Both the position numbers and the translations under genes were made by a program. From assembly GCF_003334315.1 (NCBI RefSeq), contig NZ_QOWR01000007.1: a stretch of DNA of 64,000 bases; one strand, 5' to 3'. A model generated the notes under the pieces. It ran no database searches. It was not told the DNA's origin and saw only the letters and a program-made list of their open reading frames with translations. Source of the DNA: Escherichia coli (GTDB taxonomy: Bacteria > Pseudomonadota > Gammaproteobacteria > Enterobacterales > Enterobacteriaceae). This document shows, piece by piece, positions 39,519 through 58,811 of the stretch (positions within the stretch are counted from its first letter, which is position 1; every line of letters begins with the position of its first letter).

Positions 39519-39620
39519 TGCCTGATGCCGATTCGTAGGCCGGATAAGGCGCTCGCGCCGCATCCGGCGGTGGTGCGCTGAAGCCTGATGCGACGCTTAC
39601 CGCGTCTTATCATGCCTACT
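39519..39620. repeat. REP/BIME element cluster
   Basis: GCCTGATGCCGATTCGTAGGCCGGATAAGGCG...CGCATCCGGC units between ytfQ and ytfR. Confidence 0.6.
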
Positions 39621-45751: not shown

Positions 45752-45872
45752 CGGCCTCAGCCTGATATAGTGTGCGTAGGCCGGATAAGGCATTCACGCC
45801 GCATCCGGCATTTGAGCATAGTGCCTGATGCGACGCTTGATGCGTCTTATCAGGCCTACAGGTGCACCGCAT
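45752..45872. repeat. REP/BIME element cluster
   Basis: Multiple GCCGGATAAGGC / GCCTGATGCGACGC palindromic units between mpl and yjgA. Confidence 0.6.
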
Positions 45873-53248: not shown

Positions 53249-54670
53249 TTAAACAATATCCAGCGTGCCCAGGCGGTATTTCCGCTGATAGATAAACGAG
53301 GTGAGTACAATCGGGATGATGATGGCGATAACCATTGCCAGCGCAAATACCTGCCAGTAGCTCGGTTGAATCGAGAGAATTCCCGGCAGGCCGCCTACGC
53401 CGATACCATTCGCCATAACGCCGTTCAGGCCGCATAGTAATCCTGCCAGACCAGAACCAATCATCGCGCACAGCATCGGGAAGCGATATTTCAGGTTGAT
53501 GCCGTACATTGCAGGCTCAGTGACCCCAAGCCAGGCGGAGATAGCGGCAGGCACGGAGATCTCGCGTTCATTGTGCTTGCGGCTGGAAATGATAATGCCT
53601 ATCACGGCGGAGCCCTGAGCGATATTCGACAGCGCAATCAGCGGCCACACTGGCGTGCCACCCATGCTTTGAATCATCTGCAAATCAATAGCAAGGGTGG
53701 TCTGGTGTACGCCGGTGATCACCAGCGGCGCGTACAGGAAGCCAAACAATGCCGCACCAATCGGAGCAAAGCTGCCGGTCATCAGGTGACGTACCGCAAA
53801 GGCAACGCCATCGCCAATCATGCGACCAAACGGACCAATCAGCGCATGGGCGAGGAACACCGCGAGGATCAGCGAACAGACGGGCACCACCACCAGATAG
53901 AGGTAATCCGGTACGATGCGTTTAAGGCGAGTTTCAATAACGCCCAGTGCCAGCCCGGCTAACAGTGCCGGGATCACCTGTGCCTGATAGCCCACTTTGG
54001 CGATGCTGAACATGCCAAAGTCCCACACTTCCGGCAGCTGCTGCCCGAGCAGATAAGCGTTCATCAGCTGGGGAGAAACCAGTGTCACGCCAAGCACGAT
54101 ACCAAGGATCGGCGTGCCGCCCATTTTTTTCACCGCTGACCAGCAAATACCGACCGGCAGGTAGAAGAAGATCGCTTCACCGATCAACCACAGAAAATCG
54201 TAGATCGTTTGCAGGGAAGGGTACATTTGCGCCAGCGTCTGACCGTTGCTCATGGGCAAATCGCCGATCACATTGCGAAAACCGAGGATCAAACCGCCGC
54301 TAATCAACGCGGGCAGCAACGGGAAGAAGATCTCCGCGAAATGAGAGATCAACTGCTCATGCCATTTCATATTCTGCCGGGCGGCTTTTTTTACCTGCTC
54401 TTTATCAACCTGCGCCTGTCCGGTTGACGCTATTAGTGCTTGATAGTAATCACCCACGTTGGTGCCAATCACCACCTGAAATTGCCCGGCATTGGTGAAA
54501 CAGCCTTTCACCATGGGGAGTTGCTCAATTTCTTTCGGTCTGGCATTGGCCGGTTGGTTGAGGACAAAGCGCAGGCGAGTAATACAGTGGCTCACCGTCG
54601 CAATATTGCCGCGCCCGCCGACCAGTTCAATCAACCGATCGATATCCGTTTGGTTTATTTTGCTCATCAT
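53249..54670 (-). CDS. treB: PTS trehalose-specific EIIBC component
   Basis: 473-aa ORF MMSKINQTDIDRLIELVGGRGNIATVSHCITRLRF (EIIB cysteine) plus EIIC membrane domain. Confidence 0.95.
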   Translation of the reverse strand: MMSKINQTDIDRLIELVGGRGNIATVSHCITRLRFVLNQPANARPKEIEQLPMVKGCFTNAGQFQVVIGTNVGDYYQALIASTGQAQVDKEQVKKAARQNMKWHEQLISHFAEIFFPLLPALISGGLILGFRNVIGDLPMSNGQTLAQMYPSLQTIYDFLWLIGEAIFFYLPVGICWSAVKKMGGTPILGIVLGVTLVSPQLMNAYLLGQQLPEVWDFGMFSIAKVGYQAQVIPALLAGLALGVIETRLKRIVPDYLYLVVVPVCSLILAVFLAHALIGPFGRMIGDGVAFAVRHLMTGSFAPIGAALFGFLYAPLVITGVHQTTLAIDLQMIQSMGGTPVWPLIALSNIAQGSAVIGIIISSRKHNEREISVPAAISAWLGVTEPAMYGINLKYRFPMLCAMIGSGLAGLLCGLNGVMANGIGVGGLPGILSIQPSYWQVFALAMVIAIIIPIVLTSFIYQRKYRLGTLDIV

Positions 54671-54735
54671 AAAGCCCCATGGCAGATGACATTTTTGGTT
54701 GGCTGCAGAATATATTGCGCGGAAAAATTTAAAAA

Positions 54736-54749
54736 CGGGAACGTTCCCG
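54736..54749. promoter_or_regulatory. Perfect 14-bp palindrome in the treB promoter (candidate TreR operator)
   Basis: CGGGAACGTTCCCG read from sequence, between treR stop and treB start; LacI-family operators are palindromes of this type. Confidence 0.45.
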
Positions 54750-54788
54750 AAACGCAGCGAAGATCACAATTTATCGTTCAGGAAACGA

Positions 54789-55736
54789 TCAGGACAGGGT
54801 GGCGGGGATGATGATTTGTTGCGGTTCGCTGCGCCCGGTTACCTGTGCGATCAACTGGCAGGCCGCCTGGCGTCCAGCTTCGGCGTAACCAGGATCTACG
54901 GTGACGATCTCCGGATGAAGGAATTTCATTAATGGCGTATTACCGACGCTCGCCAGTTGCAAGGTGTCGATGCGTTGCTCTTGCAGGTATTTACTTGCGC
55001 CAAGTGCCAGCGTGTCGGTTGCGCACAGTAAGGCGGTAGTTTCAGGCGTAATCACTTTTGCTACGTTCTCATAGCCTTGCTTCATAGCAAGGCCTGGCAG
55101 AGCGGCAACGGGATGCAGTTTATGCGCTTTGCAGAACGCCAGGTAGGCTTCGTGACGTCGCTTCCCGGTCGTCACGTCACTATGCGGCACGCCGAGATAA
55201 CTGATATTACGATGCCCCTGGTCATACAGCCGTTGCATCAGGATCTTGATTGCCCCTTCGTCGTCATAACAGACCGAAGCAAAACCTTTTGCGTCACGCG
55301 CCAGCAGAACCAGCGATGACTGCCAGTGGGCTAACATTTCTTCTGTTATGCCAGTAAAACCGAACAGCACTACGCCGTCGATATTACGCCGTTTCAGCAC
55401 CCCCAAATGTTCGGCAACTAATTGTGGGGAAAACTGACTTTCCATCATGATTGGGTCGTAACCTTGTTCATAGAACGCTGGCAGCATGGTTTGAACGGCG
55501 AGATTTTCTGACAACGAATCCAGACGGGTAACAATGATGGCGACCACTTTATCGCTTTGCCCACGCATAGCGCGCGCAGAGCGGGAAGGGGAAAATCCAT
55601 GCTGATTCATCACTGCTTCAACACGCTCGCGGGTGCGCTGGCTCACGCCGCTTTCGTTATTCAGCACCCGGGAAACTGTAGATTTCCCCACGCCGCTTAA
55701 GCGTGCGATGTCTTTGATGGTCAGCCGATTTTGCAT
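54789..55736 (-). CDS. treR: LacI-family trehalose operon repressor
   Basis: 315-aa ORF MQNRLTIKDIARLSGVGKSTVSRVLNN (LacI HTH). Confidence 0.95.
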   Translation of the reverse strand: MQNRLTIKDIARLSGVGKSTVSRVLNNESGVSQRTRERVEAVMNQHGFSPSRSARAMRGQSDKVVAIIVTRLDSLSENLAVQTMLPAFYEQGYDPIMMESQFSPQLVAEHLGVLKRRNIDGVVLFGFTGITEEMLAHWQSSLVLLARDAKGFASVCYDDEGAIKILMQRLYDQGHRNISYLGVPHSDVTTGKRRHEAYLAFCKAHKLHPVAALPGLAMKQGYENVAKVITPETTALLCATDTLALGASKYLQEQRIDTLQLASVGNTPLMKFLHPEIVTVDPGYAEAGRQAACQLIAQVTGRSEPQQIIIPATLS

Positions 55737-55810
55737 CCTGTTGTCCTGTAACGTGTTGTTTAATTATTTGAGCCTAACTTTACCCGTGCATTCAGCAATG
55801 GGTAAAGTCT

Positions 55811-55827
55811 GGTTTATCGTTGGTTTA
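55811..55827 (+). promoter_or_regulatory. PhoP box of the mgtA promoter
   Basis: Direct repeat GGTTTA-tcgtt-GGTTTA (PhoP consensus (T/G)GTTTA-N5-(T/G)GTTTA) followed by a TATTAT -10-like hexamer about 12 bp downstream. Confidence 0.55.
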
Positions 55828-55851
55828 GTTGCCAGCAGGTATTATATCGCC

Positions 55852-56114
55852 ATAGATGCTACGAATATTATTGGATTCTCCTTATTATTTGCGGCGCTTT
55901 TTTCACTTACCGGAGGTTATATGGAACCTGATCCCACGCCTCTCCCTCGACGGAGATTAAAACTTTTCCGGTAAGCCCGTCTTTTCACGGCGTTACCGGA
56001 TGCGTAAGGCCGTGACGTTTTAACGTCCCTGCTCAGCTTTATTACCTTCAGGTAAGGCTTCGCCACGCCTGAAGACATTTCTGTACTGTTTCAGACAGTG
56101 CGGAGGGACTCCTT
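55852..56114 (+). promoter_or_regulatory. mgtA 5' leader (Mg2+ / proline-sensing attenuator RNA)
   Basis: About 260-nt untranslated region between the PhoP-dependent promoter and the mgtA start, containing the mgtL leader ORF; extent approximate. Confidence 0.55.
55921..55974 (+). CDS. mgtL: mgtA leader peptide (proline-rich)
   Basis: 17-codon [20 protein letters not shown] within the mgtA leader; matches recalled MgtL. Confidence 0.8.
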
Positions 56115-58811
56115 ATGTTTAAAGAAATTTTTACCCGGCTCATTCGCCATTTACCTTCCCGTCTGGTTCATCGCGATCCATTGCCTGGCGCGCAGCAGAC
56201 AGTGAATACGGCGGTCCCGCCGTCCTTAAGTGCGCATTGCCTGAAAATGACGGTGATGCCCGAAGAAGAATTATGGAAAACGTTCGACACCCATCCGGAA
56301 GGGTTAAATCAGGCGGAAGTGGAATCTGCCCGCGAACAACATGGTGAAAATAAATTACCCGCACAACAACCGTCGCCGTGGTGGGTACATTTATGGGTCT
56401 GCTATCGCAACCCCTTTAATATTTTACTCACCATTCTCGGCGCTATTTCTTACGCCACGGAAGATTTATTTGCCGCGGGCGTTATCGCGCTAATGGTCGC
56501 TATTTCAACGTTGCTGAACTTTATTCAGGAAGCACGTTCCACTAAAGCGGCAGATGCCCTGAAAGCGATGGTCAGCAATACCGCGACGGTGCTGCGCGTA
56601 ATTAACGACAAAGGCGAAAATGGCTGGCTGGAGATCCCGATCGACCAGCTGGTGCCCGGCGATATTATAAAACTGGCGGCGGGAGATATGATCCCGGCAG
56701 ATTTACGTATCTTGCAGGCGCGGGATCTGTTCGTCGCTCAGGCGTCGTTAACCGGTGAGTCTCTGCCCGTGGAAAAGGCCGCTACCACTCGCCAGCCGGA
56801 GCACAGCAATCCGCTGGAGTGCGACACCCTGTGTTTTATGGGCACCACCGTGGTGAGCGGCACGGCACAAGCAATGGTGATTGCTACAGGAGCCAACACC
56901 TGGTTTGGTCAACTGGCGGGGCGTGTTAGTGAGCAGGAAAGCGAGCCGAATGCCTTTCAGCAGGGGATCAGCCGCGTCAGTATGCTGCTGATTCGCTTTA
57001 TGCTGGTGATGGCTCCGGTGGTGTTGCTTATCAACGGTTACACCAAAGGCGACTGGTGGGAAGCGGCACTGTTTGCGCTTTCGGTCGCGGTAGGCTTAAC
57101 GCCGGAAATGTTGCCGATGATTGTTACCTCGACGCTGGCGCGCGGCGCAGTAAAGCTGTCGAAACAGAAAGTGATCGTCAAACATCTGGATGCTATTCAG
57201 AACTTTGGCGCAATGGATATTCTGTGCACTGATAAAACCGGCACCCTGACACAGGACAAAATTGTGCTGGAGAATCATACCGATATCTCCGGTAAAACCA
57301 GCGAACGCGTGCTGCATAGCGCGTGGTTGAACAGTCATTATCAGACCGGACTTAAAAACCTGCTCGATACAGCGGTGCTCGAAGGTACGGATGAAGAGTC
57401 AGCGCGCTCGCTGGCCAGCCGTTGGCAAAAAATTGATGAGATTCCGTTTGATTTCGAGCGTCGCCGGATGTCGGTGGTAGTGGCAGAAAATACCGAGCAC
57501 CATCAGCTGGTTTGCAAAGGTGCATTGCAGGAAATCCTCAATGTGTGTTCGCAGGTGCGTCACAATGGCGAGATTGTGCCGCTCGATGACATCATGCTGC
57601 GTAAGATTAAGCGGGTTACTGATACGCTGAATCGTCAGGGGCTGCGCGTGGTTGCGGTGGCGACGAAATACCTGCCAGCGCGTGAAGGAGATTACCAGCG
57701 GGCGGATGAATCCGACCTGATCCTCGAAGGATATATTGCTTTCCTTGATCCGCCAAAAGAGACAACTGCTCCGGCACTGAAGGCATTAAAAGCGAGTGGA
57801 ATTACCGTAAAAATCCTTACTGGCGACAGTGAGTTAGTTGCAGCGAAAGTGTGCCATGAAGTGGGGCTGGACGCGGGAGAGGTGGTCATTGGTAGTGATA
57901 TTGAAACGCTATCTGACGACGAACTGGCAAATCTCGCACAGCGCACCACGCTGTTTGCTCGTCTGACGCCGATGCATAAAGAACGCATTGTGACCTTACT
58001 GAAGCGCGAAGGGCATGTGGTTGGCTTTATGGGCGATGGTATTAATGATGCGCCCGCCTTACGCGCTGCGGATATCGGCATTTCTGTGGACGGCGCGGTA
58101 GATATTGCCCGTGAAGCGGCTGATATCATCCTGCTGGAAAAAAGCCTGATGGTGCTGGAAGAGGGGGTTATTGAAGGACGTCGCACTTTCGCCAACATGC
58201 TGAAATACATCAAAATGACGGCGAGCTCCAACTTCGGTAATGTGTTCAGCGTGCTGGTGGCGAGTGCTTTCTTGCCCTTCCTGCCGATGTTGCCGTTACA
58301 CTTGCTTATTCAGAACCTGCTGTATGATGTGTCACAGGTGGCGATCCCGTTTGATAACGTCGACGACGAGCAAATTCAAAAGCCGCAGCGTTGGAATCCG
58401 GCGGATCTGGGGCGCTTTATGATCTTCTTCGGACCGATCAGCTCGATCTTCGATATTCTGACGTTTTGCCTGATGTGGTGGGTATTCCATGCCAACACGC
58501 CGGAAACGCAAACGCTGTTCCAGTCGGGATGGTTTGTGGTGGGCTTACTGTCGCAAACGCTGATTGTGCATATGATCCGCACCCGCCGTGTGCCGTTTAT
58601 TCAGAGCTGTGCATCGTGGCCGTTAATGATCATGACCGTGATCGTGATGATTGTCGGGATCGCATTGCCGTTTTCACCGCTGGCCAGTTATCTGCAATTA
58701 CAGGCGCTGCCGTTAAGCTATTTCCCGTGGCTGGTTGCGATTCTGGCAGGGTATATGACATTAACCCAGTTGGTGAAAGGGTTCTATAGCCGTCGTTACG
58801 GCTGGCAATAA
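56115..58811 (+). CDS. mgtA: Mg2+-importing P-type ATPase
   Basis: 898-aa ORF MFKEIFTRLIRHLPSRLVHRDP...; DKTGTLT phosphorylation motif and GDGINDAPAL hinge motif. Confidence 0.97.
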   Translation: MFKEIFTRLIRHLPSRLVHRDPLPGAQQTVNTAVPPSLSAHCLKMTVMPEEELWKTFDTHPEGLNQAEVESAREQHGENKLPAQQPSPWWVHLWVCYRNPFNILLTILGAISYATEDLFAAGVIALMVAISTLLNFIQEARSTKAADALKAMVSNTATVLRVINDKGENGWLEIPIDQLVPGDIIKLAAGDMIPADLRILQARDLFVAQASLTGESLPVEKAATTRQPEHSNPLECDTLCFMGTTVVSGTAQAMVIATGANTWFGQLAGRVSEQESEPNAFQQGISRVSMLLIRFMLVMAPVVLLINGYTKGDWWEAALFALSVAVGLTPEMLPMIVTSTLARGAVKLSKQKVIVKHLDAIQNFGAMDILCTDKTGTLTQDKIVLENHTDISGKTSERVLHSAWLNSHYQTGLKNLLDTAVLEGTDEESARSLASRWQKIDEIPFDFERRRMSVVVAENTEHHQLVCKGALQEILNVCSQVRHNGEIVPLDDIMLRKIKRVTDTLNRQGLRVVAVATKYLPAREGDYQRADESDLILEGYIAFLDPPKETTAPALKALKASGITVKILTGDSELVAAKVCHEVGLDAGEVVIGSDIETLSDDELANLAQRTTLFARLTPMHKERIVTLLKREGHVVGFMGDGINDAPALRAADIGISVDGAVDIAREAADIILLEKSLMVLEEGVIEGRRTFANMLKYIKMTASSNFGNVFSVLVASAFLPFLPMLPLHLLIQNLLYDVSQVAIPFDNVDDEQIQKPQRWNPADLGRFMIFFGPISSIFDILTFCLMWWVFHANTPETQTLFQSGWFVVGLLSQTLIVHMIRTRRVPFIQSCASWPLMIMTVIVMIVGIALPFSPLASYLQLQALPLSYFPWLVAILAGYMTLTQLVKGFYSRRYGWQ

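Follow-up and report, generated by a model that had tools for sequence, protein, structure and literature searches.

The stretch at positions 55811-56114 of the window, that is, of the 64,000-nucleotide piece of an Escherichia coli contig analysed here, not only resembles the mgtA control region of E. coli but is that very region, within the treR/mgtL-mgtA intergenic interval; the span runs exactly from the first base of a PhoP box to the last base ahead of the mgtA ATG. This control region is canonical, intact and already well studied, with nothing out of the ordinary in the source genome. Its elements almost certainly form the known three-part control, made of a PhoP-activated promoter, the mgtL upstream open reading frame (uORF) together with an RNA switch, and premature termination of transcription, and nothing in the analysis argues against the identification of the region as that of mgtA. 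The identity with K-12, the membership in an Rfam family, the two near-isoenergetic folds, the conservation in relatives, the covariation and the synteny were computed here; PhoP binding, the Mg2+-dependent change in structure and read-through (K-12 and Salmonella leaders), the dependence on mgtL translation and the involvement of Rho come from published work on identical or orthologous sequences, and the element presumably behaves in the source strain as it does in K-12.

Regarding its genomic setting, the 378 bp that separate the neighbouring ORFs on either side were matched in all 5426 complete E. coli genomes of the RefSeq search, with an identity of at least 99% in 4186 of them, and the RefSeq annotation beneath the match reads "mgtL: mgtA regulatory leader peptide MgtL". 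The exact 378-bp sequence occurs at 100% identity in many unrelated E. coli strains (H1-H10 among 20 records sampled evenly), so the intergenic sequence of the window is a common allele. K-12 MG1655 carries, one after the other, treB and treR on the minus strand, mgtL and mgtA on the plus strand, and then ridA and pyrI, and the window is collinear with it at b4702/b4242. The divergent gene treR starts 75 nt from the PhoP box (window 55736-55827), and a published motif scan in Shigella gave the mgtA box, in reverse-complement form, as a candidate site for treR.

In the plasmid collection, nine records labelled as plasmids (H21-H29) carried the leader at an identity of at least 99%; eight of them measure 0.37-4.9 Mb, all nine are typed as non-mobilizable, and most look like chromosomal pieces misfiled as plasmids. 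One plasmid-labelled record with the leader, NZ_AP023207.1, is just 93.8 kb long. In the dolphin isolate E. coli GCU-H1 (L002, NZ_CP178558.1, 3001-4118), the intergenic match ends after 120 nt, at about the mgtA transcription start (window ~55857 onward), and the sequence beyond the end of the match holds an IS1 transposase and then a truncated pseudogene of the Rid family; from this arrangement, mgtL and mgtA appear to be deleted, which would make GCU-H1 a natural mgtA-null E. coli that retains the PhoP box.

When the whole intergenic region was compared base by base with that of K-12 MG1655, only two differences emerged: position 55779 is T in the window and G in K-12, and position 55832 is C in the window and T in K-12. 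They lie upstream of the transcript, and the window is identical to K-12 from 55833 to 56114; as a consequence, the 5' leader RNA of mgtA (55851-56114, plus strand as for all the features described below unless otherwise indicated), of about 264 nt, is 100% identical to its K-12 counterpart. [quoted passage not shown] The first-pass annotation, made from the letters of the DNA, had described the system as unaltered: this holds base for base for the transcribed RNA, and has to be amended for the DNA upstream of it, with its two single-nucleotide differences, one of which is in the promoter spacer. The alignment with the K-12 leader, which that annotation had proposed as a check, disclosed no divergence at the mgtL codons or at the stem-loops, and the leader length that it had put at ~260 nt is 263-264 nt, with the start deduced from spacing.

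As for the promoter, the PhoP box is the direct repeat GGTTTA-TCGTT-GGTTTA (GGTTTATCGTTGGTTTA, 55811-55827), which points toward mgtA and lies across the -35 position of its P1 promoter. The GGTTTA-N5-GGTTTA repeat had already been noticed on first reading; it is indeed there, and it is the single match to this pattern in the 64-kb window when both strands are scanned, against 0.01 expected from dinucleotide-preserving shuffles, a figure that rules out a chance origin. Its form agrees with the PhoP box consensus (T/G)GTTTA-N5-(T/G)GTTTA (PMC3335776). The Salmonella mgtA promoter has been classified as "architecture I", with a single direct box located 12 nt from the -10 and over the -35, as in class II activation, and with a leader of 264 nt (PMC3335776); the window has the same form of the box, single and direct, over a poor -35, and the same distance of 12 nt between the box and the -10 hexamer TATTAT, which was read from the sequence at 55840-55845. 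Experimental evidence for the box comes from Shigella flexneri, where the mgtA box tGGTTTAtcgttGGTTTAg was bound by phosphorylated PhoP in electrophoretic mobility shift and footprinting experiments (PMC5775216); this 19-nt sequence equals that of the window box, flanking bases included (PMC5775216).

A sigma-70 promoter scan of positions 55600-56300 detected no promoter-like site with a -35/-10 pair, a result that is expected for an activator-dependent promoter and that is uninformative by itself. From the spacing between the box and the -10, and from the 264-nt length of the Salmonella leader, transcription would start at 55851/55852. The PhoP box and a TATnAT hexamer at a fixed distance from it are kept in most of the related genera (alignment A2). 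In Kosakonia and Enterobacter sp. Bisph1 (L003, L013, L016, L023 and others), the first half-site is degenerate, GTATAC-N5-GGTTTA (alignment A2, columns 27-59); these same promoters have an additional GGTTTA half-site ~33 nt farther upstream, and their 5' leader is ~35 nt shorter.

The second component, the mgtL leader ORF, consists of 17 codons plus the stop (55921-55974, with the ATG at 55921 and the TAA at 55972-55974) and is identical to K-12 b4702. Its translation gives exactly the proline-rich peptide of the first reading, in which codons 3, 5, 7 and 9 specify proline and residues 2-5 make up an EPDP motif. The Shine-Dalgarno sequence GGAGG (55912-55916) is 4 nt upstream of the ATG and corresponds to leader nt 62-66, inside the 5' arm of stem A (nt 56-66); the UAA corresponds to leader nt 122-124, and it is contained in the arm at nt 115-125 of stem A as well as in the arm at nt 117-124 of stem C. 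Thus, the ORF has the features of MgtL, namely a length of about 17 codons, the proline pattern with EPDP, a Shine-Dalgarno sequence and a stop codon embedded in stem arms, and a frame that is kept in relatives. In E. coli MG1655, reporter fusions, toeprinting and the dependence on EttA demonstrated that mgtL is translated and that it controls mgtA; EPDP causes an intrinsic destabilisation of the ribosome, counteracted by EttA, and changes at E2 and D4 of mgtL abolish the read-through into mgtA (PMC11282234). Given that the leader of the window is identical to that of MG1655, these results should transfer directly to it.

The third component is the fold of the leader RNA. When all Rfam families were searched, the only match in the interval 54500-57500 was RF01056 (Magnesium-II, or "Mg sensor", the Mg2+-responsive mgtA leader), which the covariance model placed at 55906-56021, including stem-loop A, with mgtL inside it, and stem-loop B. 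The score was 125.8 bits, compared to a gathering score of 40, with E = 2.6e-26; the match covered model positions 1-115 of 115, hence it was not truncated, and it was confirmed on the whole window. The assignment to this family is based on the score, on the position in the mgtA 5' leader and on the occurrence of two mutually exclusive conformations. Elsewhere in the window, other Rfam matches above the gathering score were the RpsF leader, the ES239 sRNA, STnc450, ES036 and two copies of naRNA4 (matches at 8505-8589, 26901-27023, 30375-30432, 30512-30554, 39538-39616 and 45779-45856).

The minimum free energy (MFE) fold of the leader reproduces the Rfam structure; its energy is -88 kcal/mol, and z = -4.2 relative to shuffled sequences. 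Stem-loop A (55906-55975, leader nt 56-125) appears in the Rfam structure, in the MFE fold and in the RNAalifold consensus; the mgtL Shine-Dalgarno sequence is part of its 5' arm CUUACCGGAGG (55906-55916), and the mgtL stop codon is part of its 3' arm UUUCCGGUAAG (55965-55975). Stem-loop B (CACGGCGUUACCGGAUGCGUAAGGCCGUG, 55986-56014, leader nt 136-164) reaches -14.6 kcal/mol when folded alone and belongs to the termination-prone conformation. Stem-loop C (55967-56000, leader nt 117-150), with -17.8 kcal/mol alone, joins UCCGGUAA from the 3' arm of A to UUACCGGA from the 5' arm of B, and because it uses these arms it excludes both A and B. The alternative stem-loops, whose prediction had been suggested on first reading, were all obtained: A plus B in the MFE fold, and the mutually exclusive C when its pairing was imposed. 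For leader nt 56-164, the A+B fold has a computed energy of -36.3 kcal/mol and the best fold forced to contain C has -34.1 kcal/mol; such a pair of predicted folds, mutually exclusive and nearly isoenergetic, is what a switch needs.

The downstream leader (56014-56103) forms three hairpins in the MFE fold, a small one at 56014-56027 and two more at 56046-56074 and 56081-56103, the last of which adjoins the mgtA Shine-Dalgarno sequence. Just 3' of stem B, at ~56021-56050, there is a C-rich and G-poor tract, with 10 C and 3 G in leader nt 171-200, whose composition and position make it a plausible rut region. To mimic a ribosome stalled at the EPDP codons, nt 65-95 were also barred from pairing in a thermodynamic computation: stem C did not form, because the outer part of stem A was still able to pair. 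This computation is a crude equilibrium model and was dropped as evidence; since blocking the footprint alone does not flip the fold to C, the switch between A+B and C is taken to be kinetic or steric, as proposed in the literature.

The conservation of these elements was evaluated by a single scan of species-representative genomes with the pattern M-[DE]-P-[DE]-P-T-P-L-P-R, which returned 26 loci; this pattern fixes the first 10 codons of mgtL, so that their conservation is circular, and the remaining leader was free to vary. All 26 loci are from Enterobacteriaceae, and they include Escherichia, Salmonella, Citrobacter, Kosakonia, Leclercia, Superficieibacter, Pseudescherichia, one Enterobacter and three MAG records. 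The mgtL ORF has 15-17 codons in 26 of 26 relatives, the gaps in its variable C-terminal part are of 3 or 6 nt, and its stop is always within the invariant CCGGUAAG. A homologue of mgtA (75-99% identity over the first 300 residues) begins 189-307 nt after the mgtL ATG in each of the 25 loci that had enough downstream DNA for this to be verified. Within this range, the Kosakonia sacchari group and a soil MAG (L007, L016, L028) have 303-307 nt between the two start codons, compared to 189-212 nt in the other genera, with ~100 extra nt before mgtA. A different length variation is shared by the divergent E. coli E69 (L011) and by E. whittamii (L021), which have a common 12-nt deletion (alignment A1, columns 39-50; window ~55879-55890) in the stretch of the leader that precedes stem A on the 5' side and is poorly conserved.

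With regard to the RNA structure, 92% of the alignment cells are standard pairs in the structure made of A, B and the downstream hairpins, a value that drops to about 40% when the partners are slid by 1-3 columns. RNAalifold, run independently of the supplied structure, found stems A and B again, along with the two hairpins inside A and those of the downstream leader. Stem B has compensatory changes in four pairs, with 97% of the cells paired over 27 sequences, and the three downstream hairpins have such changes in 2, 4 and 6 pairs, respectively. For stem A, the 8 core pairs do not change in any of the 27 sequences; stem C is paired in 90% of the cells across relatives, with invariant arms. 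In the covariation test of stems A and C, neither obtained covariation support, both arms being invariant across the 27 sequences, and the two stems are supported by their pairing potential; this invariance is expected for arms that serve two partners plus the Shine-Dalgarno sequence or the stop codon. At window position 55992 (leader nt 142; alignment A1, column 160), the Escherichia lineage has G or A, whereas the other genera have C; the G or A is a mismatch against G158 of stem B and, in the stem C extension, against G125, and C pairs in both cases. Judged from these pairings, the change is predicted to be a lineage-specific weakening of both alternative helices.

These elements fit in a mechanism that would operate as follows. 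At low periplasmic Mg2+, PhoQ would phosphorylate PhoP, which in turn would occupy the GGTTTA-N5-GGTTTA box over the -35 and activate the transcription of the ~264-nt leader; the two mutually exclusive folds of the latter would then decide whether RNA polymerase gets to mgtA. With sufficient cytoplasmic Mg2+, ribosomes would translate mgtL fully up to its stop, located in a segment that serves both as the 3' arm of stem A and as the 5' arm of stem C; full translation would lead to stem-loops A and B, the C-rich rut around stem B would be exposed, and transcription would stop early in the leader. When Mg2+, proline or charged tRNA-Pro are low, elongation would fail at the early EPDP/proline codons of mgtL, stem-loop C would form, the termination signal would be masked and mgtA would be transcribed. 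In the published model, high Mg2+ is likewise associated with A+B and premature termination, and low Mg2+ with C and read-through; the leader exerts its control mainly via mgtL, whose proline and acidic codons are elongated inefficiently at low Mg2+ (PMC11552253). The first-pass annotation had spoken of the known Mg2+/proline-responsive attenuation system, and this reading is supported, as to the identification of the known mgtL-mgtA leader, by the RefSeq annotation of mgtL, by the collinearity with K-12 and by RF01056; the term attenuation needs a small correction, as the published output step is Rho-dependent and not a classical intrinsic attenuator. In addition, the notion of proline-codon sensing needs widening, because the EPDP motif and the destabilisation of the ribosome are now central to the published model (PMC11552253, PMC11282234).

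Some alternatives to this picture have to be weighed, starting from the identity of the sensor. The RNA itself could perform this task as a true Mg2+ riboswitch, in which the direct binding of Mg2+ stabilises A and B and the translation of mgtL is secondary: Rfam classes RF01056 as a riboswitch aptamer, the near-isoenergetic folds are such that a modest effect of the ligand could tip the balance, and Mg2+-dependent folding alone is enough to modulate Rho termination in vitro, with the possibility that several mechanisms coexist (PMC11552253). Yet, the response in E. coli and Salmonella has been put down mainly to the elongation of mgtL, with the participation of EPDP, bL31, EttA and EF-P (PMC11552253, PMC11282234); moreover, the mgtL frame, the Shine-Dalgarno sequence in the arm of A and the stop codon in the arm shared by A and C are strictly kept in the relatives, with indels that are in-frame, which argues that translation matters. 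The choice between direct sensing of Mg2+ by the RNA and sensing through mgtL translation is still debated (PMC11552253), and on balance a switch driven primarily by the RNA is considered rather unlikely for this leader. Far less credit is due to a functional alteration of the control region in this strain through the substitution at 55832 or that at 55779: two intergenic differences from K-12 do exist, but both spare the box hexamers, the -10 and the transcript, the spacer between box and -10 is variable among species, and many unrelated strains carry the very same 378 bp; being a common allele with its elements and transcript untouched, the sequence makes such a change highly improbable, and this explanation was set aside.

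Returning to the control through mgtL and the RNA switch, the Rho dependence of its output step is disputed for E. coli. Rho-dependent termination is established for Salmonella, and a 2025 review states that it "may not be conserved in E. coli" (PMC12360218); this doubt rests on a ChIP study in which the rho R66S mutation was without effect on E. coli mgtA, with a Rho score of 1.0 (PMC5499598). Instead of using Rho, E. coli could end or pause transcription without this factor once past stem-loop A, or degrade the leader by way of RNase E, and along with the Rho score and the possible non-conservation flagged in the review, two data can be read in this sense: the strong 3' end found just after mgtL by Term-seq in K-12 (PMC7815308 supplement), and the targeting of the Salmonella mgtA transcript by RNase E, as cited in PMC11552253. 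Against it, the same Term-seq data set has a second 3' end that precedes mgtA by 49 nt and was given a Rho-dependent score with bicyclomycin (PMC7815308 supplement), and the authors of the ChIP study noted that R66S may simply not affect the mgtA terminator (PMC5499598). Converted by the K-12 offset, the two ends (4467490 and 4467576 in K-12) fall at window positions 55980 and 56066, respectively; the former follows stem-loop A by 5 nt and adjoins a UCUUUU tract, and it may derive from exonuclease trimming back to the stable stem A. Finally, a scan for intrinsic terminators over 55600-56300 identified none in the leader, a result that fits with factor-dependent termination and is uninformative by itself. 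Taken together, an output step that does without Rho is judged unlikely in E. coli, and it is very doubtful that the end at 55980 marks a discrete ~130-nt RNA encoding mgtL and produced by a Rho-independent termination or pause event. If this latter were true, E. coli would have an additional attenuation step or a stable small RNA derived from the leader, and the conflicting reports on the Rho dependence of its mgtA would be reconciled.

The controlled gene, mgtA (56115-58811), is intact in ORF and annotation and encodes a Mg2+-importing P-type ATPase of 898 amino acids, with the motifs TGES213, DKTGT373 and GDGIND640 and with two residue differences from the K-12 protein, A33V and T46A. In K-12, Term-seq also detected a minus-strand 3' end at 4470082, antisense to mgtA in the 3' portion of the gene and corresponding to window position 58572 (PMC7815308 file 2). 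Altogether, the sequence indicates that the source genome should keep the normal regulation of MgtA. The locus represents textbook layered control of Mg2+ homeostasis, already known and with little discovery value; it is useful as a positive control, because the PhoP box, the 17-codon leader ORF and the long leader could be recognised from the raw sequence alone.

In comparison with other known systems, the leader of corA with its corL uORF, present in E. coli and Salmonella, has a uORF in stem-loop A, mutually exclusive A/B and C/D folds, rut sites flanking stem B and a response to Mg2+ (PMC11552253); it differs in that it controls another gene, its promoter is not under PhoP, and corL has a single conserved proline. 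The corA leader is thus analogous in design, by its published description, and is not homologous to the window sequence. The Salmonella mgtA leader, also a member of RF01056, is closer, as it shares with the window stem-loops A, which encloses mgtL, and B, the alternative C, the PhoP box at 12 nt from the -10 and a length of ~264 nt; the MgtL peptide is MEPDP...RRRLKLFR in the window and MDPEP...RWR[VI]FLFR in the sampled subspecies of S. enterica, and Rho dependence is firmly shown in Salmonella, whereas it is disputed in E. coli (PMC12360218, PMC5499598). The closest counterpart is the mgtL-mgtA leader of K-12, from which the window differs by the substitutions at 55779 and 55832 and by the two in MgtA (A33V, T46A), and with which it shares the treB-treR and ridA-pyrI flanks, the 194-nt distance between the ATG of mgtL and that of mgtA, and identical mgtL codons, transcribed leader and PhoP box.
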